Below, piece by piece: positions 34,496-50,734 of a stretch of DNA of 64,000 nucleotides. Below the pieces are notes generated by a model. That model saw only the letters and a list, made by a program, of their open reading frames with translations, searched no databases and was not told the origin of the DNA. This stretch comes from Thermoplasmata archaeon UBA184. GTDB taxonomy: Archaea; Thermoplasmatota; Thermoplasmata; Lutacidiplasmatales; UBA184. The DNA lies in NCBI GenBank assembly GCA_002495185.1, contig DAEB01000040.1:29184-93183 (forward strand). The letters run 5' to 3'. The position numbers and the translations under genes are program-made. Position 1 is the stretch's first letter; every line of letters starts with the position of its first letter.

Positions 34496-34978
34496 TCAAA
34501 TCCGACGGAAGCGCGCCCACAACGCTCCCAACATTGCACCGATTCCCACGAGGTACCAGAACAGGTCCATCGCGCCGGCCCACAGGAAGGGTTGATTCGC
34601 CTCATTGGCGGGGTCCCAGAACAGCTCCTTGACCAGTACGATGGCCACGAATCCCGCGACCGCGAACCTGGACACATTCGGATGTTCTCGGCTCGGGTCC
34701 CCCAGTCTCCCCGGGGCCAGTACGTACGCAACTGCGACGGCCAGCGCTCCGATTGCCGCATGGTCCTCGGGGAGGATGATAGCCGGACTGAGCCAATCAA
34801 CCATGCCAAGCCCTACGGCAACCTTCGGTAAAGCTATCGACTCACGGGAAGAACGAGGGAAGTGGCCATCGCTGCGAGTGGGTGCGTGTAAGCCCAATTG
34901 CACACGCTTCCTACCCCCGGCTGTTCCGCGAACCAATATCCGTTCGATTCCGGGCCGATTCACTTCTGCGCGGTCCAC
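34496..34978 (-). CDS. hypothetical membrane protein
   Basis: C-terminal half is hydrophobic (FAVAGFVAIVLVKELFW, LFWYLVGIGAMLGALWARF). The start is unclear and it overlaps the VapC-like gene by 19 nt. Confidence 0.3.
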   Translation of the reverse strand: MDRAEVNRPGIERILVRGTAGGRKRVQLGLHAPTRSDGHFPRSSRESIALPKVAVGLGMVDWLSPAIILPEDHAAIGALAVAVAYVLAPGRLGDPSREHPNVSRFAVAGFVAIVLVKELFWDPANEANQPFLWAGAMDLFWYLVGIGAMLGALWARFRRI

Positions 34979-35388
34979 TCAGAGGGCCGAATCGCCCGCT
35001 TCACCGTCTTCAGAAGCAAGGAATCATCCGTGACGAGCGGGCAAGAGCGACCCTCGGCGAGTGTGGCATAGCATGCATCGTAGACAGTGACCATTCGGCG
35101 GCGTGCGAAATCCGCCGCAGCGCTGAGGTCGTTGGACGTGGGACGAACAAGGGAGATCTGGAGGTCGTAGAGGTAACGAATGGATTCCTCGAGGCGATCA
35201 CTGCCAATCGCGGGGTGGTATCGCAGGGCGTTGGCTACCTCGTAACAGATCAAATCGGGGGCCAGAATCCTGACCCGACCCTCGATGTGTTCATCTCGAA
35301 GAGCTCTCGCGTCGTCAGCGCCCTTTTCCGGGAGGAACCACTTGACCGCCACCGAGGCGTCGGCGACTATTTCCGGGATTCGCGCCAC
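34960..35388 (-). CDS. vapC: PIN-domain ribonuclease toxin (VapC-like)
   Basis: N-terminal IVADASVAVKWFLPE with the conserved Asp, plus downstream acidic residues in PIN spacing (ILAPDL, VTVYDACYATLAEG, LVTDDSLL). Confidence 0.7.
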   Translation of the reverse strand: MARIPEIVADASVAVKWFLPEKGADDARALRDEHIEGRVRILAPDLICYEVANALRYHPAIGSDRLEESIRYLYDLQISLVRPTSNDLSAAADFARRRMVTVYDACYATLAEGRSCPLVTDDSLLLKTVKRAIRPSEWTAQK

Positions 35389-35621
35389 TTGCGGATTTCC
35401 CGGGTGGAGGCGTAAGGAAGTACCGGGAGGCTCTTTCGCATCGCATCCATTCTGCGCGCGGCACGCCGAGCGCGAGCTCGGTCAATGGGCTGCCGCAGGT
35501 CCTCCTCGATGTCGAGGCGCTCCCGGAGTGCCGATCGTACAACCTCCGCCCAATTCACGTCCTTCATACTGGCCATTCTGCCTCGTGTCGCGGAGTCTAC
35601 CCGGACGCTGATGACATCCAT
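35367..35621 (-). CDS. vapB: ribbon-helix-helix-type antitoxin (VapB-like)
   Basis: MDVISVRVDSATRGRM (beta-strand) followed by helical segments (VNWAEVVRSALRERLDIEED). Overlaps the VapC start by 22 nt. Confidence 0.55.
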   Translation of the reverse strand: MDVISVRVDSATRGRMASMKDVNWAEVVRSALRERLDIEEDLRQPIDRARARRAARRMDAMRKSLPVLPYASTREIRKWRESRK

Positions 35622-35786: not shown

Positions 35787-38237
35787 TCACAACAGCGCGC
35801 TGGTTTCGAACCCGAAGAGGTAGGCGTTACCGATTCCACTCGTGTGGTCCGAACCCTGACCGTCGGCTCCCACAACCACTCTCACGGCCTCGAAGACGGA
35901 CTGCCCGAATTCCCCGCCAAACTGTGCGTCGGGACTGTAGTATCGGTCCATCGGGACGCCGGTGCCCGCGTTGTACATGTAAACGGCCCCCGCCCCTGAG
36001 AAACCGACCGAAGTATCCCCCGGAGCGCCGACGATCACGGTACCTCCGTTCGTGGAAACGCTCGTGCCAAAATGCGCGCCCTGCTGGACCTGCGTGCTGA
36101 TCAGGGTGGCTACGAGCGAAAACGTCGATTGCGAGAAGATGTAGGCCCGACCAGCGTCGAGGTACCCCTGGACGGTCTCCGAGGGAGCACCGATAATGAT
36201 CGTACCCCCGGAGACCGAGACCGATTCCCCGAAGAATCCGCCGCCTTGCGCGTTCGGGCTAAAGAACGACGCGATCGCCGCACCGGTCGTCGAAGAGTTG
36301 AGGTAGGCCCGGCCGGCGCTGCCTGCGGCGCCCACGCTCTCGCCCCAGGCCCCGACGAGCGTGTCGCCGCCACTGATCGACACCGAGATCCCGAACTCGC
36401 CACCCGAGGAGACGTGTCCACTTGCCATCGACGTGACGAGGGCGCCCGTCGACACGTTGAAGACGTACGCGCTCCCCGCATTGCCCAGACCCCCGACGGT
36501 CGCAAGAGGAGCTCCGACCGCCACCAAGCTTCCGCTCAGCGCGACGCTGAATCCAAAGAACGCACCGGGCATCGGGCTGGGCGTCGTCCAAGTCCGGTAG
36601 AGGGAAAGGTCGGACTCATTGAACACGTAGACCTCTCCTTGGAGGGTCGATCCGCCGGGCGACTCTCCCGGGGCCCCGACGACGATCCAGTTCCCGTTGG
36701 TCGCGACCGACCGGCCGAAGAACCCGTCGACGGTCGGGTTCGGGCTCATCAGCGTCTTTACCGCGAGGCTGGGACTGGGATCGACCGGCACGACGTACAC
36801 ATCCCCTTCCTGGGTGACCCCGCCGGGACTCTCCGAGGGAGCTCCCGCAACCATCACGCCTCCACCCACCGCAACCGATCGGCCGAGGTCCCCACCGGCG
36901 ATGGCGTTCGGACTCGTCAGCTTCAGTGGGATCTGGTTGAACACGTAGGCGAGACCGGCTCGGAAGACGCTCGACCCGTTCTCGAATATGGCACCGACGA
37001 CGACCGTGCTGCCCGTCTCGGCGACCGAGAATCCGAATCGGCCGTTGTTCGGCCACCCCGGAGCGGAGAAGGCCGACGAGACGAGCTCTCCGCTCTGAAC
37101 GCTGAACAAGTAGGCGTTGCCGGCCTTGATCTGTCCCCCCGAAGTCTCTTCCTGCGCACCAATCACGACCGTCACAGGATCGATCGCTACATCTCCTCCG
37201 AAGAACCCATCGAAGGTGGGCGCGGGAGAGGTGAAGGTGATGGAGCCGTTCGTGATCATGTTGGTCTCGAATGCAGCGCCCGCGGATGCTATGGGTGGGA
37301 GGGACTCGGCGGGCGCCCCTCCGAGAACGGTGGTCCCACTGATCGAGACCGACCATCCATAAAGGGCGCCGATGGTCGGCACCGGGTTCTCGATCTCCTC
37401 GACCACGTTTCCGGTCGGGACGGCATAGACGTACACCGCACCCTCATTCAGGGTTCCACCGGTGGAGTCGTAGGGGGCGCCCACGGCGACGAGGTTGCCA
37501 CTGATCGCGACCGAGTTTCCGAGTGCCGCATCACTCTCGAGATTGGGACTGATGAGCAGGCGATATGTGTCCGTCAGAAGGTTGATCAGGTAGGCGTCGC
37601 CGGAGAAGAGATACCCCGACTGACCCTCGCTGGGAGCGCCCACCACGGCAAAGTTCCCGGAGAGAGCAACGGAGTTTCCGAAGGCGCCGCCCACCTCTCC
37701 TTCGGGACTGGTGAACGTCTGCAGCAGAGCGCCGCTGCTCGCGTTGAACAGGTAAGCATTGCCCGAGCTGCCCGCCCCGTTGGCCGATTCGCCCGGAGCT
37801 CCCACGAGAACGACGTTTCCACTGGCGGCCACCGAGTAGCCGAAGAGTCCCGTGACTTGGGGACTCGGACTGACGATTCGAAGCATCGCCCCCGTGGTCG
37901 AGTTCTCGATGTAGGCGGCCCCCGCCTCCGAGATTCCGAACGGGGCTTCGTTGGAGGCACCGATCACCACATAGGACGGTGTGACGACCACGGATTGCCC
38001 GAAGTGACCGGTCGATGCCGGTTGCGTGGAGCTCAGCGTGATGGGCAGGAATTGTGGGTCAACGGCCGTGGTCGTTGGCACCGGGGGCGCGTGGGGGGCC
38101 GTGGGCCCGGCGCCCGAGCCAGAATGCCCAGGAAACGGGACGAAGACAACCGCGAGCGAAGCGAGGACTACGACCGTCACAGCGGTGATTCGGAGCCACA
38201 GCGGTCGAGTTCGGAGGTGATAGGGGCGGCTTGACAC
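35787..38237 (-). CDS. secreted beta-propeller surface protein with ~12 FG-GAP-like repeats
   Basis: N-terminal signal anchor RPLWLRITAVTVVVLASLAVVFV. Repeated units of form SVA.SGN.V.VGAP..S..G...GAVYV(F) throughout (e.g. VVLVGAPGESANGAGSSGNAYLF). The antisense ORF 36072..38234 was rejected. Confidence 0.7.
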   Translation of the reverse strand: MSSRPYHLRTRPLWLRITAVTVVVLASLAVVFVPFPGHSGSGAGPTAPHAPPVPTTTAVDPQFLPITLSSTQPASTGHFGQSVVVTPSYVVIGASNEAPFGISEAGAAYIENSTTGAMLRIVSPSPQVTGLFGYSVAASGNVVLVGAPGESANGAGSSGNAYLFNASSGALLQTFTSPEGEVGGAFGNSVALSGNFAVVGAPSEGQSGYLFSGDAYLINLLTDTYRLLISPNLESDAALGNSVAISGNLVAVGAPYDSTGGTLNEGAVYVYAVPTGNVVEEIENPVPTIGALYGWSVSISGTTVLGGAPAESLPPIASAGAAFETNMITNGSITFTSPAPTFDGFFGGDVAIDPVTVVIGAQEETSGGQIKAGNAYLFSVQSGELVSSAFSAPGWPNNGRFGFSVAETGSTVVVGAIFENGSSVFRAGLAYVFNQIPLKLTSPNAIAGGDLGRSVAVGGGVMVAGAPSESPGGVTQEGDVYVVPVDPSPSLAVKTLMSPNPTVDGFFGRSVATNGNWIVVGAPGESPGGSTLQGEVYVFNESDLSLYRTWTTPSPMPGAFFGFSVALSGSLVAVGAPLATVGGLGNAGSAYVFNVSTGALVTSMASGHVSSGGEFGISVSISGGDTLVGAWGESVGAAGSAGRAYLNSSTTGAAIASFFSPNAQGGGFFGESVSVSGGTIIIGAPSETVQGYLDAGRAYIFSQSTFSLVATLISTQVQQGAHFGTSVSTNGGTVIVGAPGDTSVGFSGAGAVYMYNAGTGVPMDRYYSPDAQFGGEFGQSVFEAVRVVVGADGQGSDHTSGIGNAYLFGFETSALL

Positions 38238-38749
38238 GGTGTAGCACTCCCAACGGAGAGTGGTCTATAAACCTGCCGAAAGGCACCAACTGGCCGGTGG
38301 CCGACTACTTCGCCTACACGGCCCGCGTACCAGCCTCCACGCTGGAAGAGCGGATTCGAAGCCGTGTCTCAGGTGCAATCTGAATTGCATCCGCGACTCG
38401 CTCGGACCCCGAATGCTCGGGGTCCATACTTTCAGGGGCAGGTCGGTTCCCTCAGCAACCCGAGGCAAGCGAGGCGCCCTCTGAATTACGCATCCCACCG
38501 GTCGAACGCTGACCGAAGGCGGAGCTTCTCCCGCTTGGGGCGGCGCACCGAACCGGGCTCCACACACTCTCGGGGCGGACGGCGGTTATATGTCGCCGAG
38601 ACCTGAGTCAGCGATAGCGCGGCTCAAACATTCAGAAGATTGGCGCGAAGGCACGTCACGGTCTCTTTCAGTCTGCCAAGTGACCAAGATAATAGACCTG
38701 TTACGTGATGCACCTCTGCGGGTCGGCAGCAGTGGGTACCTGATCGTCC

Positions 38750-39781
38750 TTGACGAGTTTGTCGTGTCTTGTAACTGCCTTCAATCGCCGCGAGTTCCTC
38801 GTTCAAGCCTTAACGTCTGCACTTTGTCAAGAATCTATCTCGGAGTCGTATGAGATTGTCTTGCTGACAAATCTTGACATCACGGGGACCCAGGTCGAAA
38901 GAATCACAACAAGATCGCAGGGCGGACCAGAAATCAAGGTAGTCCACTGCGACAATGCAGGAGTGGGACGTTTTTTCTGGGCTGGAGTTGAGGCGTGCCA
39001 AGGGGAAGTTGTCTGTTTCCTAAACGACGATGACACCTGGCTCCCGCGCAAGCTCTCGGTTGTTGCAAGGATGTTTGATGCGAATCCTCGGCTCGGATTC
39101 TTCCGTCACAACTTCAGATATGTCGACCGTTTCGGCAAACCCCTGCCTGACCTCGATCGTCGGTGGAGTCGTAGACGTGGGAACCTGGTAGCCCCTGCCG
39201 AAGGGCAGGTTGTGCTTGGGGAGAAGCGCGATGTTTCGTCGATTCGGCACCTCAATCGCTACGCACCTTACGCAAATGAGTCCACTATGGCTGTTAGGCG
39301 GCGACTCTTGATGGATGTGAGCACAGAATTTCAAGAAATCTTGGCTGGAGAAGATGCTTTCTTGTATTTTTCAGCATTGTGTTCGCAGTACTCCCTTGCG
39401 GCTAGCGCTGAACCCCTTAGCGAATACAGAATCCATGGAACCAATGCTTCTGTGGCTCATTCTGCTTCTATAGTTGAGTCGACAAGTGCAAAGTTTGTCT
39501 CAGGCATTGACGAGTCGATGGAAGTGATTGTCCGAATGTGCAGCGACTCGCCTTACCCCGCCGTGGCAGACCTCGCTCGGCACCACAGCCTGCAGCTTCT
39601 AATTACTCGCGCGATAAACGGAGGAACTCGGCTGCCAGTGAATCTGCACCGCCAGGCACTCAATCTCATCGCCTCTGGATTTGCCCTCTCTCCGATCCAA
39701 GATCTCGGGATCTTGGCGTTACTGGTTCTCAACGACATCTCACCTTCGTTGTCGGGAAGAGCCTACAGGGCGGCGATCTGA
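38750..39781 (+). CDS. GT2-family glycosyltransferase (paralog 3 of 3; lower-GC copy)
   Basis: LSCLVTAFNRREFLVQALTSALCQ...EIVLLTNLD...VVCFLNDDDTWLP is collinear with 18445..19485 and 22285..23325. Lies in the lower-GC block. Confidence 0.8.
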   Translation: MTSLSCLVTAFNRREFLVQALTSALCQESISESYEIVLLTNLDITGTQVERITTRSQGGPEIKVVHCDNAGVGRFFWAGVEACQGEVVCFLNDDDTWLPRKLSVVARMFDANPRLGFFRHNFRYVDRFGKPLPDLDRRWSRRRGNLVAPAEGQVVLGEKRDVSSIRHLNRYAPYANESTMAVRRRLLMDVSTEFQEILAGEDAFLYFSALCSQYSLAASAEPLSEYRIHGTNASVAHSASIVESTSAKFVSGIDESMEVIVRMCSDSPYPAVADLARHHSLQLLITRAINGGTRLPVNLHRQALNLIASGFALSPIQDLGILALLVLNDISPSLSGRAYRAAI

Positions 39782-39833
39782 ATTGCACTCAGCCTGGAAA
39801 GGGCCACAGTTTCGTGATTTCTCGGCCATTACC

Positions 39834-42800
39834 GTGAGAGTTGGTCGGGTAATCCAGCAGTGGTTCATCGCGGAGCATCGATTCTGGAAGGTGGGTCTTT
39901 CGCTTGGATTCGGAGTCTTGACCCTGCTTTGGACATTGCCGCTAAACTCATTCGTGTACGGTCAAGATTCCTTTCACTTCTTTGTTCAGCCCTTCAACTA
40001 CAACTTCAGCCCGACCATTCCCTACAACTACGTCTACTCCAGCAGCACGCCCCTTTACGACACATCGCAGTACTTTTACCTGACAACTTTTTCACAGTTC
40101 TTCCACATATTGGGAATTTCGGACGCGCTCGCTGAACACGTCGAGATTGTTCTGGGTACGTCTCTAGCTGTATTCGGCCTAATCGATTTGATCCAACTCA
40201 CAGAACGGCTGAACCACAGTGACCGCCAAAGAGTCGACGGGTGGTTTCTTGCGGCGGCCTTCTTTGTGTTCAATCCGTTTTCTCTGAGTGTAGTTTGGTG
40301 GCACTTCGAGGCCTGGACACTCTTCTTTATTTTGACCCCTTATTTGATTTCCTTATGTCTCTCAATTTGCTTCTCGAAGAACCTTCCATGGAACAGACTA
40401 ATCGTCACAGTCATCGTTTCAATTCTCCTTGCACCGGGTCTAACAGGAGCCTACGGAATCTCGGCAGGGCTGATCTTCCTTTACACCGGGTGCGTAGTCG
40501 TTGGGCTCGTGATTACGGGGCGACTACAATGGACAGATGCCTGGAAGCGACTTTCTCTCGTCTTTCTCTCGGGGTTGCTGCTCCTGACATGGACTAACCT
40601 GCCTCTCCTGATTCTTGGACAGCAAGTAGGATTCGGCCTTCTTACGGGTCCCGGAATACCTCAGGAGTTTCTATATCAGTCGCGTCACACAAGTTTGTTG
40701 AACGTTGTGACTCTGCTTGGCCTCTCCTGGATTTATGATCACCCAGGTGCCTATGGATGGACTCCTCAGTTGGCGTACCTTCTCGGTGCGGCATTCATTT
40801 GTCCGGCGTTGTTGACTCTGTCTGGTTTCTTTCTCCGGAGCAGGCGCGAGGTATCGTTCCTGCTGCCATTTGTCCTGCTGTGCATTCTCATCTCAACGGG
40901 AAACAACCCTCCCGCGGGACCGGTCAACAACTTCCTGGTCAACCTCGGCGGCTTCGGGTCTTACTTGGTCAACCCGTACTACTTTGTATGTGAGTACTAC
41001 GCTGTGTTTCTGAGTATTATCATGTATCTTCTCTGGGTGGGTTCCACAAACGAGTTCCGTTCAGTGGGCGTAGAAAGCTCCACTGACGCGGGGGACTCTC
41101 CTAAACCCCCGGACAAGGCTCCTTACCTACAGAAGAAGAGTGCCTTGTTTCGAAGGACCAAACGAAAGTACTTGCGTCAGACAGCATTACTCGCGGTATG
41201 CGCGGTGCTGGTTGCCACGACCTCGGTCATGGCGGCTCCATTCATTGAGGGGAGGGTCTACGTCTCCACCGGGAGCTTCGAAGACCAATTCGTTCCACCC
41301 TCCGATCTTACGGACCTTTCGAATTTCTTCCAGCAGAATTACTCGGGTCCCATTTACTACGTCTTGGTGTTACCAATCAGTCCATCAAGCGTACCCCTTG
41401 TGAACTACTCAAATGGGCAATTCGTCGATTCTAGCGAGCTCCTGGCAAGTTACATCCCGTATCCGCTCTATTACGCAACCCCGAATTCCATTGGGAATTA
41501 CCTGTTTGATGGGATTGCTTCGGGCGCAGTCCTGAACTTTACAGTTCTTTTTGCAAGTCTGCACATTAAGTACATCGTCCTGAATCCTTTCTATGCGGCC
41601 CAACCCGGTCTTCCAACACATTCCCTCAATGGTTCGAGCTATAATGCCTCGGAGACGTCCATGCGACTATCGGCGGGACTTGGTCCCAGCAGTCGAGCTG
41701 GCCAGTTCGAGATCTTCACGGTCGCTGACGTGACCCCCATCGCGTACGTAGTGGCCAACCCGATGATTCTGAATTCGCCCAATCCCGGGTCGCTGATGGG
41801 CTTCATGTCAAGCTTGAAGAGCACGCCGTCGAACCTCGCATCCGCCTTGCGTCTAGCGATTTGGAGTCTGAATACGAGTACCGATTCAAACTTCTCAGTC
41901 GGCCAGGTCCTTCCGCTTAATGGCGGATTCCAGACCTTCTCAGTCGGGCCTAACGTAACGCCATACATCGTCAACGGATCCGGTTCGGTACAGACTTGGA
42001 ACACCTCTGCCACCGATTCTGGGATTCCAGGGGTTTCTTGGGACCCCACCACTGGGAAAGTTATGCTGGTTCCCGGGGAGATTCAGAGTCCGAATTCGAC
42101 GGCGGCCAACCTCACGACTCTGGTTCCTGTGAATGGATCATTCAGCAACCCCCTCGGAAGAGCTGGAACTCTTGGCTGGTGGTTACACGGGGTTCCACCA
42201 CCCCTTTGGTTCCATACCGATGTAAACGTAACTGCTCTGGCCCCCCGCAACTGGATTACAGTCACTGTTTCGCTTGGCAATGTTTCTATCCAATTGAGTT
42301 TGTACAACGACTCCTCAACGCAGAGCAGTGTGATTGCCGCAACCGCATTCAATGACGGCAACCGTTACGCATGGAACAATGCTGCACTGCCCGACGGGTT
42401 CTTTGATGGGATAGAAAGTATTGACACTTGGGTGAACTCAACTACCATTCGAGTGGCCACTGCTTCTCATCTTCCGGGGCGCCCGATCGTGTGGGACACA
42501 CTGAATTATTCGGGCGAGTACTTGTCGCACAACGGTGGGAGGAACCTAACCGCGGCTCCATCCGTTGCACCCGGCTTTCAGAGTTATTCGGTGACCGTTC
42601 TCGCCAATCAGGTCGGAGCCGAGTTGGTCGACCCATCTATCCTGAAACCATTGTCCTTCTCATACCTGCTCGATTGGCTTAGAGAGCGAACCCCTATGTT
42701 GCAGCAGCAGAGGGTTTCATTCAATCCAACGGGTCAGATATTGACCTCAGTTACGACCAATCAATCTACTCAGCCACTCTTTGTTGTACTCGATTTTCCT

Positions 42801-43091
42801 GCTACACCGTTCTGGCAGCTCTCTTCCAGTGCTGGCACGTCGACAAAGATAGCAAACCTTACCTACGCAAATGTCTACAAAATCTCGGACCTCGGCTCGC
42901 TTGGACAGGTCCACTTTACTTTGCAGTTCGAGGCACCTTACTTGGCGAGCGTTGAATTGTCCGGCGTAGAACTGGCCTTCGCATGCACGATCGGCGCTTG
43001 GCTGGGATTGACCTCGATTCGTCGAACTAGGCGTCTCCGACGGAATGATTCTGCCAGTTCAGAAACAAGGCCAGAGAACCAATCGCGCTGA
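39834..43091 (+). CDS. very large polytopic membrane protein (~1085 aa) with ~650-aa extracytoplasmic C-terminal domain and terminal TM segment; candidate GT-C-like enzyme
   Basis: N-terminal ~430 aa has about 11 hydrophobic helices (VGLSLGFGVLTLLWTL..., FLAAAFFVFNPFSLSVVWWHF..., etc.). First loop FVYGQDSFHFF contains an acidic residue. The C-terminal region is sequon-rich and ends in a hydrophobic segment (LAFACTIGAWLGLTSIRRTRR). Start taken at GTG 39834 after the GT2 stop; the first ATG of the ORF (39681) overlaps the GT2 gene. Confidence 0.6.
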   Translation: MRVGRVIQQWFIAEHRFWKVGLSLGFGVLTLLWTLPLNSFVYGQDSFHFFVQPFNYNFSPTIPYNYVYSSSTPLYDTSQYFYLTTFSQFFHILGISDALAEHVEIVLGTSLAVFGLIDLIQLTERLNHSDRQRVDGWFLAAAFFVFNPFSLSVVWWHFEAWTLFFILTPYLISLCLSICFSKNLPWNRLIVTVIVSILLAPGLTGAYGISAGLIFLYTGCVVVGLVITGRLQWTDAWKRLSLVFLSGLLLLTWTNLPLLILGQQVGFGLLTGPGIPQEFLYQSRHTSLLNVVTLLGLSWIYDHPGAYGWTPQLAYLLGAAFICPALLTLSGFFLRSRREVSFLLPFVLLCILISTGNNPPAGPVNNFLVNLGGFGSYLVNPYYFVCEYYAVFLSIIMYLLWVGSTNEFRSVGVESSTDAGDSPKPPDKAPYLQKKSALFRRTKRKYLRQTALLAVCAVLVATTSVMAAPFIEGRVYVSTGSFEDQFVPPSDLTDLSNFFQQNYSGPIYYVLVLPISPSSVPLVNYSNGQFVDSSELLASYIPYPLYYATPNSIGNYLFDGIASGAVLNFTVLFASLHIKYIVLNPFYAAQPGLPTHSLNGSSYNASETSMRLSAGLGPSSRAGQFEIFTVADVTPIAYVVANPMILNSPNPGSLMGFMSSLKSTPSNLASALRLAIWSLNTSTDSNFSVGQVLPLNGGFQTFSVGPNVTPYIVNGSGSVQTWNTSATDSGIPGVSWDPTTGKVMLVPGEIQSPNSTAANLTTLVPVNGSFSNPLGRAGTLGWWLHGVPPPLWFHTDVNVTALAPRNWITVTVSLGNVSIQLSLYNDSSTQSSVIAATAFNDGNRYAWNNAALPDGFFDGIESIDTWVNSTTIRVATASHLPGRPIVWDTLNYSGEYLSHNGGRNLTAAPSVAPGFQSYSVTVLANQVGAELVDPSILKPLSFSYLLDWLRERTPMLQQQRVSFNPTGQILTSVTTNQSTQPLFVVLDFPATPFWQLSSSAGTSTKIANLTYANVYKISDLGSLGQVHFTLQFEAPYLASVELSGVELAFACTIGAWLGLTSIRRTRRLRRNDSASSETRPENQSR

Positions 43092-44259
43092 ATCCTATGG
43101 ATAGGTTTCTTCGGACGGTGTCCGCCCTATCCGGAGAAACCGGCTCCCGTAAGCCCCGCTCGATCGCCGACTTCAGCTGGAGGTAGTCGCGGGGCGGGAT
43201 GAATTCGACTGGGTAGTTGAGGAGCTTTGCCGACTCCCTCAGCTGGGGTTGATCATAGGCTACAATCCGGATACCGCAAAATGCGCCACAGTTTAGCGCT
43301 CCCGAGTAACCTCCTGTTGCTAGATACGGAAGGACCATTAGATCGTGGCCCAGGATGAGAGGAACGGTGCTTTCCTCTGAAACCCGCCCTATGAAATTCA
43401 CTTGGTTTGACTCATATCGTGCCCTAAGCTCGGAAACTGTCGAAGCGTATTCAGGGAAGTTGGGATTTACGGAACCGGCGACCGTCACCTGCACGTCGGG
43501 ACGGTTCGCCAAGATGCTGCTCAAGACCTCTAGCGTGCCGGAAAGGTCCTTCTGGGGGCTCCAATTCCCGAAGAGAAGAATCTTCGAGGGGGCCGAGCTC
43601 TGATTCACCGGGATTGGCTTGCCGGAGTGCAGCGCAATTGCACCACTTACAAGCGATTCGACATACGGCAAGAAAACCTGAGACACCCCCTTTCTGAACT
43701 CCTTCTGAATGATGCTCACTTGACTCGGGAGAGGAACCACAACTCGAGTGGTGTTGATGAGAGCGCGCTCGAGGAGAGAAGCCACAACGCGAGCCAGAAG
43801 TGATGGCTCATACCCCATCTGAGCGAGGTCCTGTGTTTCGACCAAGCTATGCATGAAGGTTGTTACGGGGCGCCTTGCTGCAATTCTGACAATTGTCGGA
43901 AGGAGGAGTCCGAATGCGCTACACAGCCGGGACCTACCAAAGGATGTCGGGAAGATGTTGAAGAGGACTGAGTCAGTTTTCCTCGCGAAACGGGTCAGAA
44001 TCAGGCCCGCCCGAACCAGCGACGCCGCATCATTCACCTTCCAGACCCTGTGGAGCTCCAGCTTCGTGAATGCTCCCAGAGCCGGTGGGACTTGGCTAGA
44101 GGTCTGAGCCACCAAAACCACTCGACTGATGATGTCCGATTGGGAGAGCCCGAACACAATTCCCGTGGTCGAGTTGCCAGCAAAAGCATGGTCGGGGTAG
44201 AACACACCAAACACTAGTATCCTCTTTTGATTGGATGGCTGCTCACCCCCGATTGACAT
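43027..44259 (-). CDS. GT1/GT4-like glycosyltransferase
   Basis: ILLFGNWSPQKDLSGTLEVL...VNFIGRVSEE...LATGGYSGALNCGAFCGIRIVAYD resembles the GT-B C-terminal domain. Lower-GC region. Confidence 0.6.
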   Translation of the reverse strand: MSIGGEQPSNQKRILVFGVFYPDHAFAGNSTTGIVFGLSQSDIISRVVLVAQTSSQVPPALGAFTKLELHRVWKVNDAASLVRAGLILTRFARKTDSVLFNIFPTSFGRSRLCSAFGLLLPTIVRIAARRPVTTFMHSLVETQDLAQMGYEPSLLARVVASLLERALINTTRVVVPLPSQVSIIQKEFRKGVSQVFLPYVESLVSGAIALHSGKPIPVNQSSAPSKILLFGNWSPQKDLSGTLEVLSSILANRPDVQVTVAGSVNPNFPEYASTVSELRARYESNQVNFIGRVSEESTVPLILGHDLMVLPYLATGGYSGALNCGAFCGIRIVAYDQPQLRESAKLLNYPVEFIPPRDYLQLKSAIERGLREPVSPDRADTVRRNLSIGFSAIGSLALFLNWQNHSVGDA

Positions 44260-44464
44260 TTGACTAACTCATCACCTGATGGTCGCGAGCCGCCAAGCCC
44301 GCGATCTCGGTCAATCGAACGGAAGAGGCGATCCTAATCGTCATTTCGACCTTACCTACACCGATCCTATCTCTCCCTTGGTGTTCCGAGTAATGAATTG
44401 ATGTATGGAATGGTACTGCACTCACGCGCTCACGCGGAGCTGTCCGCCGCCGGCAAGAGATTGA

Positions 44465-45319
44465 ATGAATCTAGATCTGGAAATGGCCCCCCACTCACAC
44501 GGACCTGACCTAGAGCACTCGCAGGGCGGAAGTCATCAACCTGGACGGGGCGACGTCAGTGCCGAACTGTTGCGCTTCGTATATGCCCGGGGAGATCATG
44601 TCTCGCGTTACAAGCTTGCCGCAGCCCTCTCGCGAGGATGCCGCGTCCTAGACTTTGGCTGTGGACACGGGTTCGGTGCATTGTTTTTGGAACCGAGCTG
44701 TGAAAGTATCGTTGGAGTTGACACCGACCGGGGAGCCATCGAATGGGCGAGGTCTAACATTGAATCGCGAGCATCGAACGCGCGTTTCTTCCACGTTGAC
44801 GATCCCAAGATTAGGGGTCTGAATCGGCACTTGGACATCGTCTTGTCGTTCGAAGTCATCGAGCATGTCCATGATCCTCTCGCTCACTTGGGCACTCTTT
44901 GTGGGTTCGTGAGGCCGGGAGGTAGAATCGTCCTTTCGACTCCTAATGGAGGGATATCCGCCGGGAATCCTAGGATGTTCATGTCTCCCTATCACGTGAA
45001 CGAGTTCAGCTTGGGACAGCTTTCAAAACTTGTCGGGGCACGCTCGCGGTCGGCGTCTTATCTCGGACAGAGGAGAATTGATCGTCTCGATTCGACCATT
45101 CAGCAAGTCCGCAAGAGAGTGTTCTATCCGAAGGCAGGCCATGAGTCGACGCGCCCCGCGGACAGTTACAGGAGCGCTCTCGGGAGGAGTCTGGGAGACA
45201 CACTGGTAAACAAGATACCCAATTTTGCATCATTTTGGGAACTTAATCCAGTAAGCCAACAGTCACACGACCTTGGCTCGTACACGCACTTCATAGCCAT
45301 TTTCACCCCGGAATCCTAG
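44465..45319 (+). CDS. class I SAM-dependent methyltransferase
   Basis: VLDFGCGHGFGALFL (motif I), VGVDTD (motif II acidic), LDIVLSFEVIEHV, VRPGGRIVLSTPN. Confidence 0.75.
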   Translation: MNLDLEMAPHSHGPDLEHSQGGSHQPGRGDVSAELLRFVYARGDHVSRYKLAAALSRGCRVLDFGCGHGFGALFLEPSCESIVGVDTDRGAIEWARSNIESRASNARFFHVDDPKIRGLNRHLDIVLSFEVIEHVHDPLAHLGTLCGFVRPGGRIVLSTPNGGISAGNPRMFMSPYHVNEFSLGQLSKLVGARSRSASYLGQRRIDRLDSTIQQVRKRVFYPKAGHESTRPADSYRSALGRSLGDTLVNKIPNFASFWELNPVSQQSHDLGSYTHFIAIFTPES

Positions 45320-45357
45320 AATGAGCAACGTGCGTACGGAACTGCGGTCTAGGTTGC

Positions 45358-46485
45358 GTGCTCCGGTTGTTGATGATGAGTGATAGGACAGAGACGATTG
45401 GTATCGTCGCACCTCCCTTCAAGGTACTGCCTCTCGACGGGTATGGTGGGGTTGAGAGAGTGGTGGTAGATCGTTCATCTGCACTCCGCGAAGCAGGTTA
45501 TCGTGTTGAGTTGGCGGCTCCGACAAGCACGCCAAGTTTGGCGGATCGAACGACCCAGGTCAGGATAGTGAAAACGCCGAACCTGTCAGGTCCGACTTCC
45601 GGGGACAATGTACAGCGGGTGCGATGGCTCCTCTCGAGCGCACCATATGCGTTTCCTCTAGCTTACTCAAACTGCCGGTTCGATCCTTCGGTTCGAATAA
45701 TCTTCAACGATGCGTTTCGCAATGAGCTTTGGATAAGCTATCTGATGTCGGCTCGCTTTGGAGTGAGCCGGACAATCAATGTGCTGCACGGGTTCGTGAA
45801 CTGGGACTCAGTACCATACAAACAGCTCACACGGGCAGTGCGAGGACTGAATTTCGGAAGTCTGAATCGACCTACATACGATTGGATGAAGGACCGCGGC
45901 TTCAGAGTCTTCTACACACCTAATGGGGTTCGCATCCATTCGAATTTTCCTGCCGAACGACTCGTTCGTGAGAGTCTCTTGTTCGTCGGTAGAATTGATC
46001 GGATGAAGTCCCCCCACTTGGCAATCAAACTTGCGAAGATGTGCAAACGCCCGTTGAGAATTGTCGGACCGATTACCGATCTTGGATACTACCGTTCACG
46101 TGTTCAGCCGGAGCTTGGTGGCCAAATTGCCTATGTAGGAGAAGTTTCGGATCAAAGGCTGGAGGAAATCTTCCACGATAGCTCTGGGCTGGTCTACATC
46201 GGAACCTACAACGACCCGCTGCCGGATGTCTTATTGAGATCCATCACGCATGGTGTTCCGGTCATAGGAATCCGACCCGGTCCCTTCTCAGGCTTCCACG
46301 ATGTGGTGGTCGACGGACGGAATGGCGTCGTTTCGGATAGTATAGAAGGATTGGCCGCAAGAATCGACGACTTGGACCACTTCGACTCCGCCAGAATCAC
46401 AGCCGAGGCATTGGAGAAATGGTCGTGGGACAGTGTGATTCGGAGGTTCTACGAGCCGACTTTCAAACAGCTCCTCGCCGCGTAG
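45358..46485 (+). CDS. GT4-family glycosyltransferase
   Basis: LLFVGRIDRMKSPHLAIKLAK...VYIGTYNDPLPDVLLRSITHGVPVIGIRPGPFSGF. Confidence 0.7.
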   Translation: MLRLLMMSDRTETIGIVAPPFKVLPLDGYGGVERVVVDRSSALREAGYRVELAAPTSTPSLADRTTQVRIVKTPNLSGPTSGDNVQRVRWLLSSAPYAFPLAYSNCRFDPSVRIIFNDAFRNELWISYLMSARFGVSRTINVLHGFVNWDSVPYKQLTRAVRGLNFGSLNRPTYDWMKDRGFRVFYTPNGVRIHSNFPAERLVRESLLFVGRIDRMKSPHLAIKLAKMCKRPLRIVGPITDLGYYRSRVQPELGGQIAYVGEVSDQRLEEIFHDSSGLVYIGTYNDPLPDVLLRSITHGVPVIGIRPGPFSGFHDVVVDGRNGVVSDSIEGLAARIDDLDHFDSARITAEALEKWSWDSVIRRFYEPTFKQLLAA

Positions 46486-46561
46486 GACGCTCGTCGTGGC
46501 TTCGAAAACCTAGGCCCCTGGGGGGTGAATTGCCGAGCGTATCGAGCTCCAATCGATATAT

Positions 46562-48085
46562 TTGAAAGGAACATGGATTCCTGTACCACCGCGTGAGATG
46601 ACTCGGGCTCCGGACGTTCTAGTAATTGTCGGCGATTGCATCGGCAAGACCGGATTCGACAACGCTCGGCTGGCCGGCCATGGACTGCCTACGCTTGACA
46701 AACTCGCGAAGGCAGGGATCAGTTTCGAGGGTGCGATTTCCCCCTCGTCGTGGACCCTCCCAGCCCACGCGAGCATTTTCACGGGATTGTACCCTTGGAA
46801 CATTCGAATGCTGAACTCGCTGTCCACTCTTCCGGCCGGGACTAAGACTGTCGCGACCGAAGCCCTCAGCTCTGGTTACCGAACCGCTTCGTTTTCGTCA
46901 AATCCTTTCATTTCGCCGAGGACCGGGTTGACTCAGGGATTCTCGACGGTGAAGTGGGGCAGCTTTATCGAGGAGACTTTGCGCATGCCTTTCGTGCGGT
47001 CTCAGGGATCCCCTCCCAAGGGGAAAGCCCCCGCGACCGGTGTTCGACAAGTGGGGACCACGCTCCCCGACCAGCTTGTCAAACTCGGGCATTCCATCAT
47101 CGAGACCTATCCCTCGGCTTTGGACATGTCAATCCGATGTTGGACCAGATTGCACGCAGACCGCGCGATACCAAATCCGTGTGTGTCTCCTTGGATAGAA
47201 GCACATGTCGAATCCTGGCTTCGAAACATTCCACAGGACAGCCCAGCGTTCTGTTTTGTGAACTACATGGACGCCCACGAACCCTACGTTGGCGTCGAGT
47301 GTGGTTCCGCAGTGACATTGAGCTCCCTGAACCGGATGCGCGCTATTCGTCTCAGTGTTTCGAGGAGCAAGCGGACCGATAGACCGAGAGCGGATCCGGC
47401 GTTGGACGGGCTCAAATCATTGTACGAGCAGTCAATCCGAACAGTCGACTCCCGGATCGGAGTGATTCTTGATCTCTTTTCTCGGTATCGCGACAGTTCA
47501 AACTGCTGGATCTGCTTCCTCGGCGATCACGGACAGGTCTTTGGTGAGGATGGGAACCTGTTCCATGGGAGCGGGGGGACCGAGTCCCTCTTTCGCGTCC
47601 CGCTAATCATCAAACCCCCGCGATCTCAAGAACTCTGGGACCCGGCTAGTACACTAGTATCTCTCAAAGACTTGGGCAATCTTCTCTTTCGCGCAGTGAC
47701 GTCTACAACACGTGACCCTCCTGGCTTTGACATTCAATCCTGCTTTGTGCCTCGAGAGAATCGACTGATCTGGGCATTGGCCGATATCGGAACGTTCGCT
47801 CATGAAGGGAAGTCCCACGGCCTGCGACTGGATAGAGCTTCGACACATCACTTGCTCGCGTTCGCAGACAAAGATAGATTCGTCATCGACCCATCAGCCA
47901 AGTGCATTACCATCGTGAAGAGTTCACAATCTGTGGATGGGGGAGCAGCCCGTGGTGTCCCCGTGGAGTATGAGCGGTGGCTCCGCGAGGAGGCCGGGAA
48001 CGTGAGTCGAGCGCTCGATGCAGAGTCGGGCGTCGACCATGCGGATGCTCTGGAACGTCGGTTGCTTGCTTGGGGCTACGACTGA
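46562..48085 (+). CDS. sulfatase-like alkaline-phosphatase-superfamily protein, second copy with T-x-P-x-H motif
   Basis: SWTLPAHASIFTGLYPW and GDHGQVFGEDGNLFHGSG. Collinear with 28399..29934 (LDAHEPY, LF..TSDHGQ, RVPLI). Lower GC than the first copy. Confidence 0.75.
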   Translation: MKGTWIPVPPREMTRAPDVLVIVGDCIGKTGFDNARLAGHGLPTLDKLAKAGISFEGAISPSSWTLPAHASIFTGLYPWNIRMLNSLSTLPAGTKTVATEALSSGYRTASFSSNPFISPRTGLTQGFSTVKWGSFIEETLRMPFVRSQGSPPKGKAPATGVRQVGTTLPDQLVKLGHSIIETYPSALDMSIRCWTRLHADRAIPNPCVSPWIEAHVESWLRNIPQDSPAFCFVNYMDAHEPYVGVECGSAVTLSSLNRMRAIRLSVSRSKRTDRPRADPALDGLKSLYEQSIRTVDSRIGVILDLFSRYRDSSNCWICFLGDHGQVFGEDGNLFHGSGGTESLFRVPLIIKPPRSQELWDPASTLVSLKDLGNLLFRAVTSTTRDPPGFDIQSCFVPRENRLIWALADIGTFAHEGKSHGLRLDRASTHHLLAFADKDRFVIDPSAKCITIVKSSQSVDGGAARGVPVEYERWLREEAGNVSRALDAESGVDHADALERRLLAWGYD

Positions 48086-48248
48086 GGCACTTCCCGAGGT
48101 AGCGCTCCTTCGGCCACTTATGCTCAGTCGAAAGCATCGCTCCGATGCGATGCGCGAGCATCGAGCCAAAGCGAGCAATTGACGTGGCAACTTGACTCAC
48201 GTTGGCGAAGCTACATGCGTGAAATCGAACTTGCAGGACTCGTTATGA

Positions 48249-49145
48249 CTAGCCTAAGTGCGTGTAAAACCAGTGTGCAATCGCCCTCGTCGGTCTGGCT
48301 AGTCGCGGGTCGTTCATCATTCTAATCCCGATAAGGGATAGGAACATCGCCGGGATCGTTCGACTGAGATTCAACTTTGTGCTTGGGTCAGCACTCCAGT
48401 TCACAGGAACTTCCACAACACGGAACCCAGCACGTTCGAAGTGGAACAGCAGCGAAGCATCGAAGGCCCAATTCGTCAGGAAGACCTTCGGGAGGATACT
48501 CATGACCGCTTGGCGTCTGAAGAATTTGGCCCCGCATTGCGTGTCTTTTAGCTTCAAGCCCAAAACCACTCTCACCAGGAGGTTCCAGCTTTTCGAGAAC
48601 ACTCTTCTCGAAAAACGTGGATAAAGATCGCGATTGCTGCGATTGTCCCAGCGACTAGCAATTGCGCCTTCAGCAGTGGTCAACTCTGCCAAGAGATATG
48701 CCATGCTCACAGCAGTTATCGGCGCGTCCGCATCGATGAATCCGACGAGGTCGAACTTAGCTCTCCGAAAGCCTTCCATGACGGCGCCACCTTTGCCGAG
48801 ACGGTCTTCGAATTCAATAGCCCGTACCCCACGAGATTCGAATATTCGGGCGACCTCGGCCGTCCGGTCGGCTACACCATCGACGATCACGAGAACTTCG
48901 AAGGGTCTCCCGTACGATTCCAGGAGAGGCAGGTATCTCTCGAGTGCAATCGGAAGCCGTGCTTCTTCGTTCCAGGCGGGGATAATGAGGCTCACTCCAT
49001 CGGGCCCTTCAACCGGCTCTAACTGCTCTTCGTACCTTGACCCTGATACGGCCACGGGAAACTCGACGGCCGAACGTAGCGCCGCACTCCTGGGGAGGCT
49101 CGGCATCATGAAGGGGACCTCATGACTGGGGCGCAACAGATCCAA
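48249..49145 (-). CDS. GT2 glycosyltransferase, dolichyl/polyprenyl-phosphate hexose synthase-like (DPM1/AglD-like)
   Basis: SLIIPAWNEE, VLVIVDGVADRTAEVA, RLGKGGAVMEGF, FIDADAP, QCGAKFFRR are the motif set of Dol-P-Man/Glc synthase-type GT2 enzymes. Confidence 0.8.
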   Translation of the reverse strand: MDLLRPSHEVPFMMPSLPRSAALRSAVEFPVAVSGSRYEEQLEPVEGPDGVSLIIPAWNEEARLPIALERYLPLLESYGRPFEVLVIVDGVADRTAEVARIFESRGVRAIEFEDRLGKGGAVMEGFRRAKFDLVGFIDADAPITAVSMAYLLAELTTAEGAIASRWDNRSNRDLYPRFSRRVFSKSWNLLVRVVLGLKLKDTQCGAKFFRRQAVMSILPKVFLTNWAFDASLLFHFERAGFRVVEVPVNWSADPSTKLNLSRTIPAMFLSLIGIRMMNDPRLARPTRAIAHWFYTHLG

Positions 49146-49577
49146 TGAGACGCATTCATGTTAGCGTCCCGTAACTCCCACCTAAGTGCGCCGGGTCGTC
49201 GGGGCAGGCCGGAGATATCGCGATTGCCAGCACTCCACTAGGTTCAACCGCATTCACATCCGGGCGAATGGTATGTAGAGTCGACAATGGGGAATAAACT
49301 CTCGTTCGTCCGATTGGTTATTCAACAGGAAATGCACATCCGGCCCGGTCCAGGGTTCGCCTAACGTGCAATCGAGCGCCGGAACCAATGCTGCCAATTG
49401 GAGTTGCGACACAGTCCCTCTCGGTCAGGTGTAGTTCGGGATTAATGTCGAGTACCCCCCCCGCAAGCACGACGTTGGCTGTACCCTTTAGGCTGCGAGT
49501 ACCCCATGTTATACGTCGAGTTGTTGCAAGGCAGCTTGCAACCAAGTCTTCGTCTCGAACCGGTCCGTGTGGCAGGA

Positions 49578-50021
49578 CTACGCTCCCACCCACTCGGTCT
49601 CTGGAATCCCTTCGAAGTGCTTGTCCGCGGTGAGAACTCTCGCCCCAAGACAGCGAGCGAACGAAAGAATGATTGCATCGGCGAAGCTCGGGAGGCCAAT
49701 CTTTCGGATACGGCCGCGTTGTCGCAGTTCCTCGTCAGCGCTGATTGCTCCCAAGGCGACATCGATGTCTATGGATTGAATCGTGCTGAGGGCCCCCATC
49801 GACCGAAGGTGCCCGACAATCTGGTCGCGTTCCATCCCCTGACGTGCGAACACCCTCGCCAGTTCCGCCAGCACGATGTCCGGCGTGACCAGATCGCCTG
49901 AAGACTCGAATTTCTCGCGGACCCTCGGCCCCCGGGGGCCAGCGGTAAGGAACTCGACCCAAGCGTAGGAGTCAACGATCAGCGTCAAGACGGTCCGACT
50001 CCCGGAACGCACGCATCCCAC
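49578..50021 (-). CDS. vapC: PIN-domain protein (VapC-like toxin)
   Basis: LIVDSYAWVEFL with conserved Asp, then LTADKHF. The start is probably internal (near 49990). Confidence 0.6.
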   Translation of the reverse strand: MGCVRSGSRTVLTLIVDSYAWVEFLTAGPRGPRVREKFESSGDLVTPDIVLAELARVFARQGMERDQIVGHLRSMGALSTIQSIDIDVALGAISADEELRQRGRIRKIGLPSFADAIILSFARCLGARVLTADKHFEGIPETEWVGA

Positions 50022-50202
50022 GAGCGCTCCCGTAGATCTGGGCGACGAGCTCCTTGCGTTTCACGGCAAGGAGAGTACGAATCGCGTCGTCCAGGGTCCT
50101 GCTTCCAAGCGCCCGTTGAAACCTCTCCAGTTCAGAAAGGGTTTCACGGGACACGCGTACCGAGCTGATCGCAGCAGACATCTCGGCGTGTGCATGCCGC
50201 AT
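49972..50202 (-). CDS. putative antitoxin partner of the PIN protein
   Basis: 76-aa ORF overlapping the PIN gene start. SRETLSELERFQRALGSRTLDDAIRTLL is helical. Confidence 0.4.
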   Translation of the reverse strand: MRHAHAEMSAAISSVRVSRETLSELERFQRALGSRTLDDAIRTLLAVKRKELVAQIYGSARGMRAFRESDRLDADR

Positions 50203-50359: not shown

Positions 50360-50734
50360 TTACCGGACGAACTGAACGCCCTCGACGCCACGAAACGCGG
50401 GATCCCCCGTCAGGAACGGTACCCCGAGATTCCCTGCCGCGGCGTATCCCCAGGCGTCGATGTAGGAACAGTCCTTCCGATGGGACCTCATGGATTGGCG
50501 AAACTCACCTGCAATGAAAGCAACCTCCGGCGGAACCGGGACGATCATGGCCAGGATGCCCGATGCGAGCTCTCGGCTCTCGACGGGATCGATGCGGCGC
50601 AAGAGAGTAGCGTAGACCTCCAAGAGATTCAGGGAGCTCGTCACTACATCCTTACGTCGGAATATGCGGACGTAACGCTCGTTTCCCTCGAGGACCGCTA
50701 CGAGGGCGTAGCTATCGGCGAAGAGGTCAACCAA
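50360..50734 (-). CDS. vapC: PIN-domain protein (VapC-like toxin)
   Basis: MVDLFADSYALVAVLEG with conserved Asp, plus downstream YIDAWGYAAAGNLGVPFLTGDPAF. Confidence 0.65.
   Translation of the reverse strand: MVDLFADSYALVAVLEGNERYVRIFRRKDVVTSSLNLLEVYATLLRRIDPVESRELASGILAMIVPVPPEVAFIAGEFRQSMRSHRKDCSYIDAWGYAAAGNLGVPFLTGDPAFRGVEGVQFVR

Follow-up and report, generated by a model that had tools for sequence, protein, structure and literature searches.

The outermost sugar structures of cells are built by glycosyltransferases of the GT-C fold and, to our knowledge, only enzymes of the AglB and AglS types have been studied among the GT-C enzymes of archaea. In mycobacterial AftD, residues K39 and D41 of the first extracytoplasmic loop are essential, as are E251, K361 and D474, and the arabinan acceptor is bound by three carbohydrate-binding modules (CBMs; bioRxiv 10.1101/2019.12.22.885152). 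In bacteria, an established route begins with a lipid-linked donor, continues with a flippase and ends at a GT-C enzyme (PMC11127046), and in archaea it is known from AglD, AglR and AglS (PMC3871713). Horizontal exchange, perhaps under virus pressure, has been proposed for gene clusters of the agl type, and glycan clusters of haloarchaea are exchanged by homologous recombination at fixed sites (PMC5867893). The present analysis concerns a 64-kb stretch of contig DAEB01000040.1 of Thermoplasmata archaeon UBA184 (the window, i.e., the whole stretch of DNA analysed, 64,000 nucleotides in length) in which the gene for a family-2 glycosyltransferase, GT2_c, is followed by the gene for a 1085-residue membrane protein, referred to below as the giant protein. 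Structure prediction places the giant protein among the GT-C-fold glycosyltransferases, as a highly divergent and previously unannotated branch of the AftD-like superfamily, and the two genes form part of an 11-kb cassette of seven genes for which horizontal acquisition by a Thermoplasmata host of ~66% GC is supported.

The giant protein and its relation to AftD

The gene pair and the parts of the giant protein were assigned as follows.

38750 to 39781, plus strand: GT2_c, a family-2 glycosyltransferase of 343 aa with a TTG start (PF00535, E 1.9e-13)
39834 to 43091, plus strand: the giant protein, 1085 aa, a predicted divergent AftD-like GT-C (open reading frame, homologs and model)
39834 to 41252, plus strand: GT-C membrane core of the giant protein, residues 1-473, with 11 transmembrane (TM) helices (hydropathy and AlphaFold, AF2, model)
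39966 to 39968, plus strand: D45 codon, within the YGQDS motif of the first outside loop (family alignment)
41253 to 42935, plus strand: extracellular domain, residues ~474-1034, with 21 N-glycosylation sequons (model and Foldseek)
42936 to 43088, plus strand: single C-terminal TM helix and Arg-rich cytoplasmic tail (model)

Both open reading frames (ORFs), which an earlier note on this DNA had described from the sequence alone, were present and intact at these coordinates. The same note had the giant gene overlapping the stop of GT2_c, which was true of the maximal ORF (39681-43091, TTG start, 1136 aa) but not of the gene as read from the GTG at 39834, where a gap of 52 nt separates it from the GT2_c stop. 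This GTG was picked independently by JGI and by the NCBI/ENA/Logan gene callers and is likely the start of the 1085-aa protein. The large ORF was not a chimera of unrelated genes joined by a frameshift, as was evident from end-to-end alignment with homologs of ~1,050-1,100 aa and from a single confident model.

Hydropathy and the AF2 model, which was built with an alignment of 42 family sequences (pLDDT 85.7, pTM 0.82), confirmed the proposed topology of 11 N-terminal TM helices, an ectodomain and a C-terminal TM helix. The outside domain was ~560 aa in length (residues ~474-1034) rather than ~650 aa as first estimated and was, in agreement with that estimate, rich in sequons, with 21 N-x-S/T sites versus 7.7 +/- 2.4 in composition-preserving shuffles. 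The first extracytoplasmic loop (EL1) extends from about residue 35 to 96, a disordered loop resembling EL4 was noted at residues 264-271 and a basic cytoplasmic linker at residues ~405-446, and the conserved motifs NPF-LS and WWHF-W occupy residues 147-161. The ectodomain begins with an alpha/beta 'soluble GT-C' domain (residues ~480-680) in which P514, S516, D532, H577 and K/R579 are conserved. Three beta-sandwich modules of lectin-like or CBM-like character then occupy residues ~688-1032 of the AF2 model, in which the C-terminal helix spans residues 1035-1077.

Comparison of this model with the PDB by Foldseek gave three AftD structures as the top matches (6W98, 6WBY and 6WBX; E 2e-13 to 1e-10, probability 1.00), followed by ArnT and AftA, which matched the membrane core, while the ectodomain matched beta-sandwiches of the lectin, LamG, galectin and GH43-C types. 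With AftD leading, no chains of STT3 or the oligosaccharyltransferase complex were present among the 50 structural matches listed. Features shared with members of the GT-C class were the 11 TM helices ahead of the ectodomain, the acidic residue D45 in EL1 and the likeness to solved GT-C structures. A second connection to AftD was made through protein P0130, which was recovered with the giant protein as query (E 5e-5, 1.84 billion proteins scanned) and exceeded the gathering threshold of PF11847, the GT-C_AftD family (44.6 bits versus 26). Alignment by hhalign of the giant-family profile with the group that contains P0130 gave a probability of 100% and an E-value of 6e-43 over 527 columns, took in both TM core and alpha/beta domain (residues 16-597 of the giant protein) and placed YGQ-D45-S opposite a conserved DS of the P0130 group. 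Direct matches to PF11847 were weak and confined to 2 of the 42 family members (best E 0.0016), and the giant protein itself did not reach the gathering threshold of 26 bits.

The family to which the giant protein belongs came to light only when 1.84 billion cluster representatives were scanned exhaustively with HMMER. Of 101 matches at E<1e-3, 72 were also below E 1e-30. Some 70 of the matches were co-linear with the giant protein and 1,000-1,100 aa in length, nearly all of them at 25-30% identity, and the closest relative, from the Thermoplasmata metagenome-assembled genome (MAG) GCA_052916105.1, was 41% identical over the full length. All 18 members that were looked up fell in clusters of one or two sequences, labeled at source as 'hypothetical protein' or not at all. 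A word-indexed search of 5.8 billion proteins with the single giant sequence recovered only that sequence, and the corresponding search with the 42-sequence profile added one remote, partial LamG-type protein (24% of the query covered). NCBIfam returned no match for the giant protein. A scan of species-representative genomes with family patterns gave 21 pattern matches and no relatives, and broader alignments of the family held no stretch conserved enough for such a search. By these sequence comparisons the family appears to be rare, fast-evolving and previously unannotated. One candidate, P0107, was considered as evidence of a fusion between GT2 and giant protein and rejected; the remaining giant gene there is split into ORFs of 182, 307 and 151 aa, and a frameshifted assembly or a pseudogene is the more likely explanation. 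On a contig of 70% GC (L009, 6001-10238), GT2 and the N-terminus of a giant protein were called as one 597-aa protein and the rest as three ORFs, which would reflect either a decaying pseudogene or assembly indels.

Scored on the 42-sequence alignment, conservation was strongest in the membrane core and in the domain next to the membrane rather than in the distal beta-sandwiches. D45, which directly follows TM helix 1 (TM1), was Asp in 40 of the 42 members (95%), and the other conserved positions were E101, N147-P148, W156-H157, W161, P169, D532, H577 and K/R579. The charged residues among these (D45, E101, H157, D532, H577 and K/R579) would lie at the catalytic or metal-binding positions of GT-C enzymes, and D45 is proposed as a catalytic or metal-binding residue. 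This pattern also bears on whether the protein is an enzyme. A membrane-anchored surface glycoprotein, adhesin or lectin, or a component of glycan export or scaffolding with a degenerate GT-C-like domain, could well possess a large, sequon-rich and lectin-like ectodomain and belong to a family of such extreme divergence (25-30% identity). A non-enzymatic protein is nonetheless highly improbable, given that conservation peaks in the core and membrane-proximal region (D45, N147, P148, W161, P169, D532 and H577) with the Asp of EL1 almost always kept, and that the gene lies within GT2/GT4 operons with overlapping start and stop codons.

The GT2, GT-C and GT4 core and its possible function

A core of GT2, giant (GT-C) and GT4 genes is conserved in other metagenomic loci. 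Among nine distinct loci that were compared (the window, L003/4, L005, L006, L007/8, L009, L090, L091 and L092), a co-directional GT2 gene of ~345-360 aa was found directly upstream of the giant gene in seven and within two genes of it in L091. The gene immediately downstream encoded a GT4 in each of the seven loci where a downstream gene was visible, and in related loci the start of the GT4 gene often overlapped the stop of the giant gene. A sulfatase-family gene was present in four of the nine loci (L005, L009 and L090 included). Homologs of a second family-2 enzyme of the window, GT2_d, were noted in the L003 and L005 cassettes at 50-55% identity, far above the 27-30% identity of the giant genes. 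In L090, the giant-family cassette adjoins a gene for a 904-aa homolog of PNGase A, a peptide N-glycanase (14085-16799, minus strand), which hints at a connection to N-glycoprotein processing.

In the window, the remaining genes of the cassette were as follows.

43027 to 44259, minus strand: GT4_c, a GT-B glycosyltransferase of 410 aa (Pfam)
44465 to 45319, plus strand: S-adenosylmethionine-dependent methyltransferase, Methyltransf_23/11, 284 aa (Pfam)
45358 to 46485, plus strand: GT4_d, 375 aa (family search)
46562 to 48085, plus strand: sulfatase-family protein of the alkaline-phosphatase superfamily, 507 aa, with no TM helix (family search)
48249 to 49145, minus strand: GT2_d, 298 aa in its maximal ORF, with a DAD motif (best NCBIfam matches)

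GT2_c contains an intact DDD motif at residues 93-95 and no strong TM helix, a C-terminal helix at residues ~309-327 being weakly hydrophobic, and it resembles transferases of the WcaA/PglI type that act on lipid-linked glycans rather than a dolichyl-phosphate-sugar (Dol-P-sugar) synthase. The best NCBIfam matches of GT2_d were to ArnC, Dol-P-hexose transferase, AglJ and PgfS, at 34-52 bits versus cut-offs of 325-529, and this protein is a candidate maker of the lipid-linked donor. GT4_c is convergent with the giant gene, with which it shares 65 nt at the 3' ends, and the likeness of GT4_d to Agl16 was weak and far below the curated cut-off. A second sulfatase-family gene occurs in the window (28399-29934, plus strand), and its product is likewise without TM helices. 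In both proteins the C/S-x-P-x-R site of formylglycine sulfatases is replaced by T-x-P-x-H (WTLPAH and WTIPSH). Instead of sulfatases, they may be phosphotransferases or phosphodiesterases with a Thr nucleophile.

The role that we consider fairly probable for the giant protein is that of a polyprenyl-phosphate-sugar-dependent extracytoplasmic glycosyltransferase, acting on a glycan acceptor and encoded as part of a transferred surface-glycan cassette. Direct results of the analysis are the intact genes, the family with its predicted fold and conserved residues, the conserved neighbourhood and the compositional anomaly; we infer that the donor is lipid-linked and the acceptor a glycan, what the partner genes do, and when and in which direction transfer took place. 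On the cytoplasmic face, GT2_c, the two GT4s and the methyltransferase, all soluble or peripheral, would build and decorate a dolichol-linked glycan, and GT2_d (DPM/ArnC-like) would load dolichol phosphate with a single sugar. A flippase encoded outside the window would then carry the lipid-linked sugar to the exterior, where the giant protein would pass it to a surface glycan, either the N-glycan of a glycoprotein or a lipoglycan chain. The active site would lie between EL1, with D45, and the membrane-proximal alpha/beta domain, with D532, H577 and K/R579, and the three lectin-like beta-sandwich modules would grip the glycan acceptor in the manner of the AftD CBMs. The ectodomain itself is probably heavily N-glycosylated.

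Several observations weigh against this assignment. With respect to the fold, no Pfam match was found for the giant protein even at E<=1 and no meaningful PDB sequence match was obtained from either the single sequence or the family profile, so that the predicted link to AftD is made by structure prediction and one transitive step. For the latter, the P0130 group was recruited by the query itself, and the Pfam match of P0130 is the sole independent part. The global TM-score between the giant model and AftD was a modest 0.44, as expected of multi-domain proteins with different C-terminal parts. With respect to the pathway, no flippase of the GtrA, SMR, MATE, Wzx or AglR type was found among the ORFs of the window and no AglB/STT3 oligosaccharyltransferase is encoded there, GT2_d is without TM helices and far below every equivalog cut-off, and the tight coupling of GT2_c to the giant gene is not explained by a three-component model because GT2_c is not of the GtrB/ArnC type. 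With respect to the transfer, which is considered below, no integrase, tRNA or att repeats mark the island in which the cassette lies, and the nearest relative, from a member of the same class, has a similar FG-GAP gene next to it and a GC content below that of its own flanks.

The absence of an AglB/STT3 gene from the window could also be read as a sign that the giant protein glycosylates proteins. It would then be an O- or N-glycosylating GT-C comparable to PMT, AglB or PglB, with beta-sandwiches that bind protein substrates or the S-layer. Protein-directed transferases do exist among GT-C enzymes, chains of the ArnT and STT3 types occur lower in the Foldseek lists of the giant protein and of DUF2079 paralog B, another large membrane protein of the window (STT3 not being within the 50 matches listed for the giant protein), and the PNGase A gene beside one family cassette points to N-glycoprotein biology. 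A protein acceptor is nevertheless improbable, since the glycan-directed AftD was the best match by ~10 orders of magnitude and its extra CBMs bind a polysaccharide acceptor. Moreover, the giant protein has WWHF-W instead of a WWDYG-type motif and no match to PF02516 or PMT, and its ectodomain resembles the carbohydrate-binding folds of LamG, galectin and GH43-C.

A more ambitious interpretation of a glycan-directed giant protein, and one that we regard as doubtful, is that in Thermoplasmata the GT2, AftD-like GT-C and GT4 core is self-contained and makes or lengthens a polymeric chain at the surface, in a lipoglycan or a glycocalyx. If so, it would be an archaeal counterpart of the mycobacterial assembly of LM, LAM and arabinan, the tightly coupled GT2, which is not of the GtrB type, would have a role outside the classical three-component model, e.g., in priming or in direct hand-off to the GT-C, and the swapping of whole cassettes between lineages would amount to serotype switching under virus pressure. 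A literature search on lipoglycan glycosyltransferases of Thermoplasma gave only a general review. Neither Pfam nor NCBIfam detects the family, which numbers ~100 of the 1.84 billion cluster representatives and provides concrete candidates for the assembly and diversification of the poorly understood Thermoplasmata surfaces, both glycoproteins and lipoglycans.

The low-GC island and its origin

The seven glycan genes occupy a low-GC block (~38.6-49.7 kb) that extends beyond the GT2_c and giant pair. In this island of ~11 kb (38601-49700), GC was 54.1% versus 66.0% in the remainder of the window, with values for individual genes of 52-57% and for flanking DNA of ~66%. The earlier note had reported ~45-50% GC versus >65% elsewhere; the drop was real and the value too low, as 47-50% was reached only by a few 300-nt windows. 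Calculation of GC and of codon-level composition gene by gene, along the lines of a check that had been proposed, likewise indicated that composition was not uniform, GC at third codon positions (GC3) being 0.55-0.64 in all seven island genes and 0.78-0.92 in host genes. Amino-acid composition does not explain this drop, because the two DUF2079 paralogs of the window, although membrane proteins, hold a host-like GC3 of 0.85-0.86. The left edge of the island was abrupt, at ~38600, while the right edge was gradual, from ~49.1 to ~49.9 kb, beside toxin-antitoxin pairs of the VapBC type.

The acquisition that had been suggested on the basis of low GC was supported by composition together with cassette-level synteny with loci of other organisms, except that the unit acquired was not the pair alone and was instead the entire seven-gene, 11-kb cassette. 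A search for the nearest homologs, also proposed at that time, led to the Thermoplasmata MAG with 41% identity, and no donor was sampled. The idea that the genes of such cassettes are by their nature low in GC was rejected, since family cassettes were at host-like GC in L090 and L091 (GC3 0.90; hosts of 67-70% GC) and in L092 (host of 36% GC).

The surroundings of the cassette were informative about the site. Directly upstream is a gene for a large FG-GAP-repeat surface protein (35787-38237, minus strand), and an FG-GAP-repeat protein is likewise encoded directly upstream in the related Thermoplasmata MAG (L007, 1053-3401, minus strand). A shared flank of this kind would be expected if variable glycan cassettes occupied a conserved position in the chromosome, and it suggests such a position here. 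Searches for signs of a mobile element were negative: no integrase family occurs with the island, no tRNA gene was found across the whole 64 kb, no Rfam family reached the gathering threshold in the window, and direct repeats resembling att sites at the island borders were merely at chance level (18-25 nt). The occurrence of a same-class relative at the FG-GAP site fits replacement of the cassette in situ by recombination over insertion of a mobile element.

Some of these observations could also be accounted for without transfer, by a native, fast-evolving glycan locus at a conserved place in the chromosome, the GC of which had been lowered by a regional mutational bias, by weak selection on codons or by diversifying selection. 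In the nearest relative, an FG-GAP protein again precedes the GT2-giant pair, the pair is 6-10 points lower in GC than its flanks, and the region is related to the window, with an NTP-transferase of 60% identity. The same GC offset was noted for the L003, L005 and L006 cassettes, mobility genes, tRNA and att repeats are missing, and a second assembly of this organism carries an identical island. An origin of this kind is unlikely, although it deserves more weight than the alternatives for function, in view of a drop of ~25-30 points in GC3 that is uniform over seven genes and has a sharp left edge. Further, neighbouring glycan genes, the DUF2079 paralogs among them, keep a GC3 of ~0.85, and cassettes of the same family stand at host GC in L090 and L091. 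Replacement of a glycan cluster at a fixed site by homologous recombination, the haloarchaeal pattern (PMC5867893), is moreover itself horizontal transfer. No strain without the island was found, the one other assembly of this organism carrying the identical gene, and no close relative was found in species-representative genomes. Acquisition of the cassette would make it an example of surface-glycan cassette exchange beyond haloarchaea.

Pairs of VapBC-type genes (PIN with RHH/MazE-like), at intermediate GC, were noted on both sides of the island.

34960 to 35621, minus strand: VapBC-type pair, left of the island
49578 to 50202, minus strand: VapBC-type pair, right of the island
50360 to 50939, minus strand: VapBC-type pair, right of the island
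54089 to 54472, minus strand: VapBC-type pair, right of the island

These pairs could be stabilisers or markers of a flexible region. An abortive-infection pair, the type IV toxin-antitoxin AbiEi/AbiEii, was also noted in the window (3425-5154, plus strand). Just outside the island is the gene for an S9 prolyl-oligopeptidase (51083-52954, plus strand) with a GC3 of 0.78, the low end for the host. Its best relatives among species-representative genomes, at <=59% identity, were in Nitrososphaerales, Chloroflexota and Krumholzibacteria, not in Thermoplasmata, and from these matches this gene may have been acquired horizontally as well. The S9 peptidase scan was rejected as a pointer to relatives of the host or to an empty site; with relatives in other phyla, it was uninformative about the island.

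The JGI gene calls inside the island (38750-49145) were fragmented, with most genes affected. The call for GT2_c covered 156 aa, and those for the methyltransferase, for GT4_d and for the sulfatase-family gene were shortened or in pieces. Most probably a gene caller tuned to the high-GC host had met low-GC genes with TTG or GTG starts, and under-annotation of such foreign cassettes in MAGs may be systematic.

The DUF2079 modules and other known systems

The island lies at one end of a single large glycan region that extends from 13 to 50 kb and also encodes several GT4s, an NTP-transferase, a DegT aminotransferase, epimerases/dehydratases and an ATP-grasp enzyme. Two further large membrane proteins, both of the DUF2079 family, and the GT2 enzymes associated with them are encoded in the same region.

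13373 to 15679, minus strand: DUF2079 paralog A, 768 aa, GC3 0.86 (PF09852 and motifs)
18445 to 19485, minus strand: GT2_a, 346 aa, partner of DUF2079 paralog B and homologous to GT2_c (sequence comparison)
19792 to 22260, plus strand: DUF2079 paralog B, 822 aa, GC3 0.85 (PF09852, motifs and model)
22285 to 23325, minus strand: GT2_b, 346 aa, directly downstream of DUF2079 paralog B and homologous to GT2_c (sequence comparison)

A thermopsin-PKD surface protease of 1024 aa (9247-12321, minus strand) adjoins this DUF2079/GT cluster. The thermopsin gene and the source organisms named for DUF2079 homologs both identify the host as a member of the Thermoplasmata. A literature search on DUF2079 gave no papers.

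The giant protein had been noted not obviously to share the WDLGxN and LTLFAxQ motifs of the DUF2079 proteins, and a distinct family that performs an analogous job had been suggested as a possibility. In agreement with the first point, these motifs were confined to the two DUF2079 genes. At the level of sequence, the families were indeed distinct, as BLASTP of the giant protein against both paralogs was non-significant, PF09852 did not match it, and profile-profile comparison by hhalign, as had been recommended, gave a probability of 1.2% between the 42-sequence giant profile and a 19-sequence DUF2079 profile. A direct relationship between the two was consequently rejected on the BLASTP and hhalign results. 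The model of DUF2079 paralog B, which was moderately confident (pLDDT 70), matched AftD, ArnT, STT3, ALG9 and AftA and contained a C-terminal sandwich of the CBM4/6 type. AftD was the best PDB match of both families, and a very ancient common origin is possible because the GT-C fold and this best match are common to both. The analogous job is supported by inference, each family being a predicted GT-C with CBM-like or lectin-like outer sandwiches and a near-invariant Asp after TM1, i.e., D45 in the giant family and D109 of the invariant W108-D109 (WDLG), right after TM1, in DUF2079.

The description of GT2_c as a third GT2 paralog held, with 29% identity to GT2_a (E 2e-24) and 32% to GT2_b (E 1e-27). 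These three proteins belong to one subfamily of ~345 aa with the GT2 enzymes encoded upstream of giant-family genes elsewhere, which they match at 28-39% identity. A single GT2 subfamily thus partners two predicted GT-C families without sequence relationship in one Thermoplasmata genome, which supports the idea of an analogous job. The DUF2079 modules share with the giant gene their GT2 partners and the 13-50 kb glycan region. They differ from it in size (770-820 aa versus 1085 aa), in the number of outer beta-sandwiches (one versus three) and in composition, which is host-like for DUF2079 (GC3 0.85) and foreign for the giant gene.

Compared with AftD (PF11847), the mycobacterial alpha-(1->3)-arabinofuranosyltransferase, the giant protein has the same order of an 11-TM GT-C core and a large extracytoplasmic domain. 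In both, the ectodomain combines an alpha/beta 'soluble GT-C' part with several beta-sandwich modules of carbohydrate-binding type, and the topological position of D45, on the first outside loop, is that of D41, an essential residue in AftD. The two proteins are only ~11-12% identical in structural alignment, and they differ at the C-terminus, where AftD has five TM helices (TM12-16, of which TM13-16 form a bundle that binds ACP) as opposed to one in the giant protein. The giant protein is archaeal and paired with a ~345-aa GT2 and a GT4, an arrangement different from that of AftD in mycobacteria, and the ORFs annotated in the window included no genes for decaprenyl-phospho-arabinose synthesis (DPPR synthase, DprE1/E2).

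Three-component systems (GtrA/GtrB/Gtr*; ORF12-15/GT136 of C. youngae; AglD/AglR/AglS) resemble the cassette in that a GT-C, with an optional CBM, is encoded beside GT2s in a surface-glycan locus. GT2_d shows a sub-threshold resemblance to polyprenyl-phosphate sugar synthases, and modules of this kind typically diversify surface antigens and move horizontally. The cassette differs from such trios in its core of GT2, GT-C and GT4, with no flippase gene in cassette or window, and in its coupled GT2_c, which belongs to a type other than GtrB/ArnC and has no TM helices. The agl clusters of Haloferax, like the cassette, contain glycosyltransferase, methyltransferase and sugar-modifying genes, and they differ between relatives. 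The cassette is distinguished from them by its Thermoplasmata host, by the lack of AglB within the cluster and by a central GT-C family that is uncharacterised. No new principle emerges from these comparisons; apart from the conserved coupling of GT2, GT-C and GT4, which is unexplained, the cassette is a system of a known kind.

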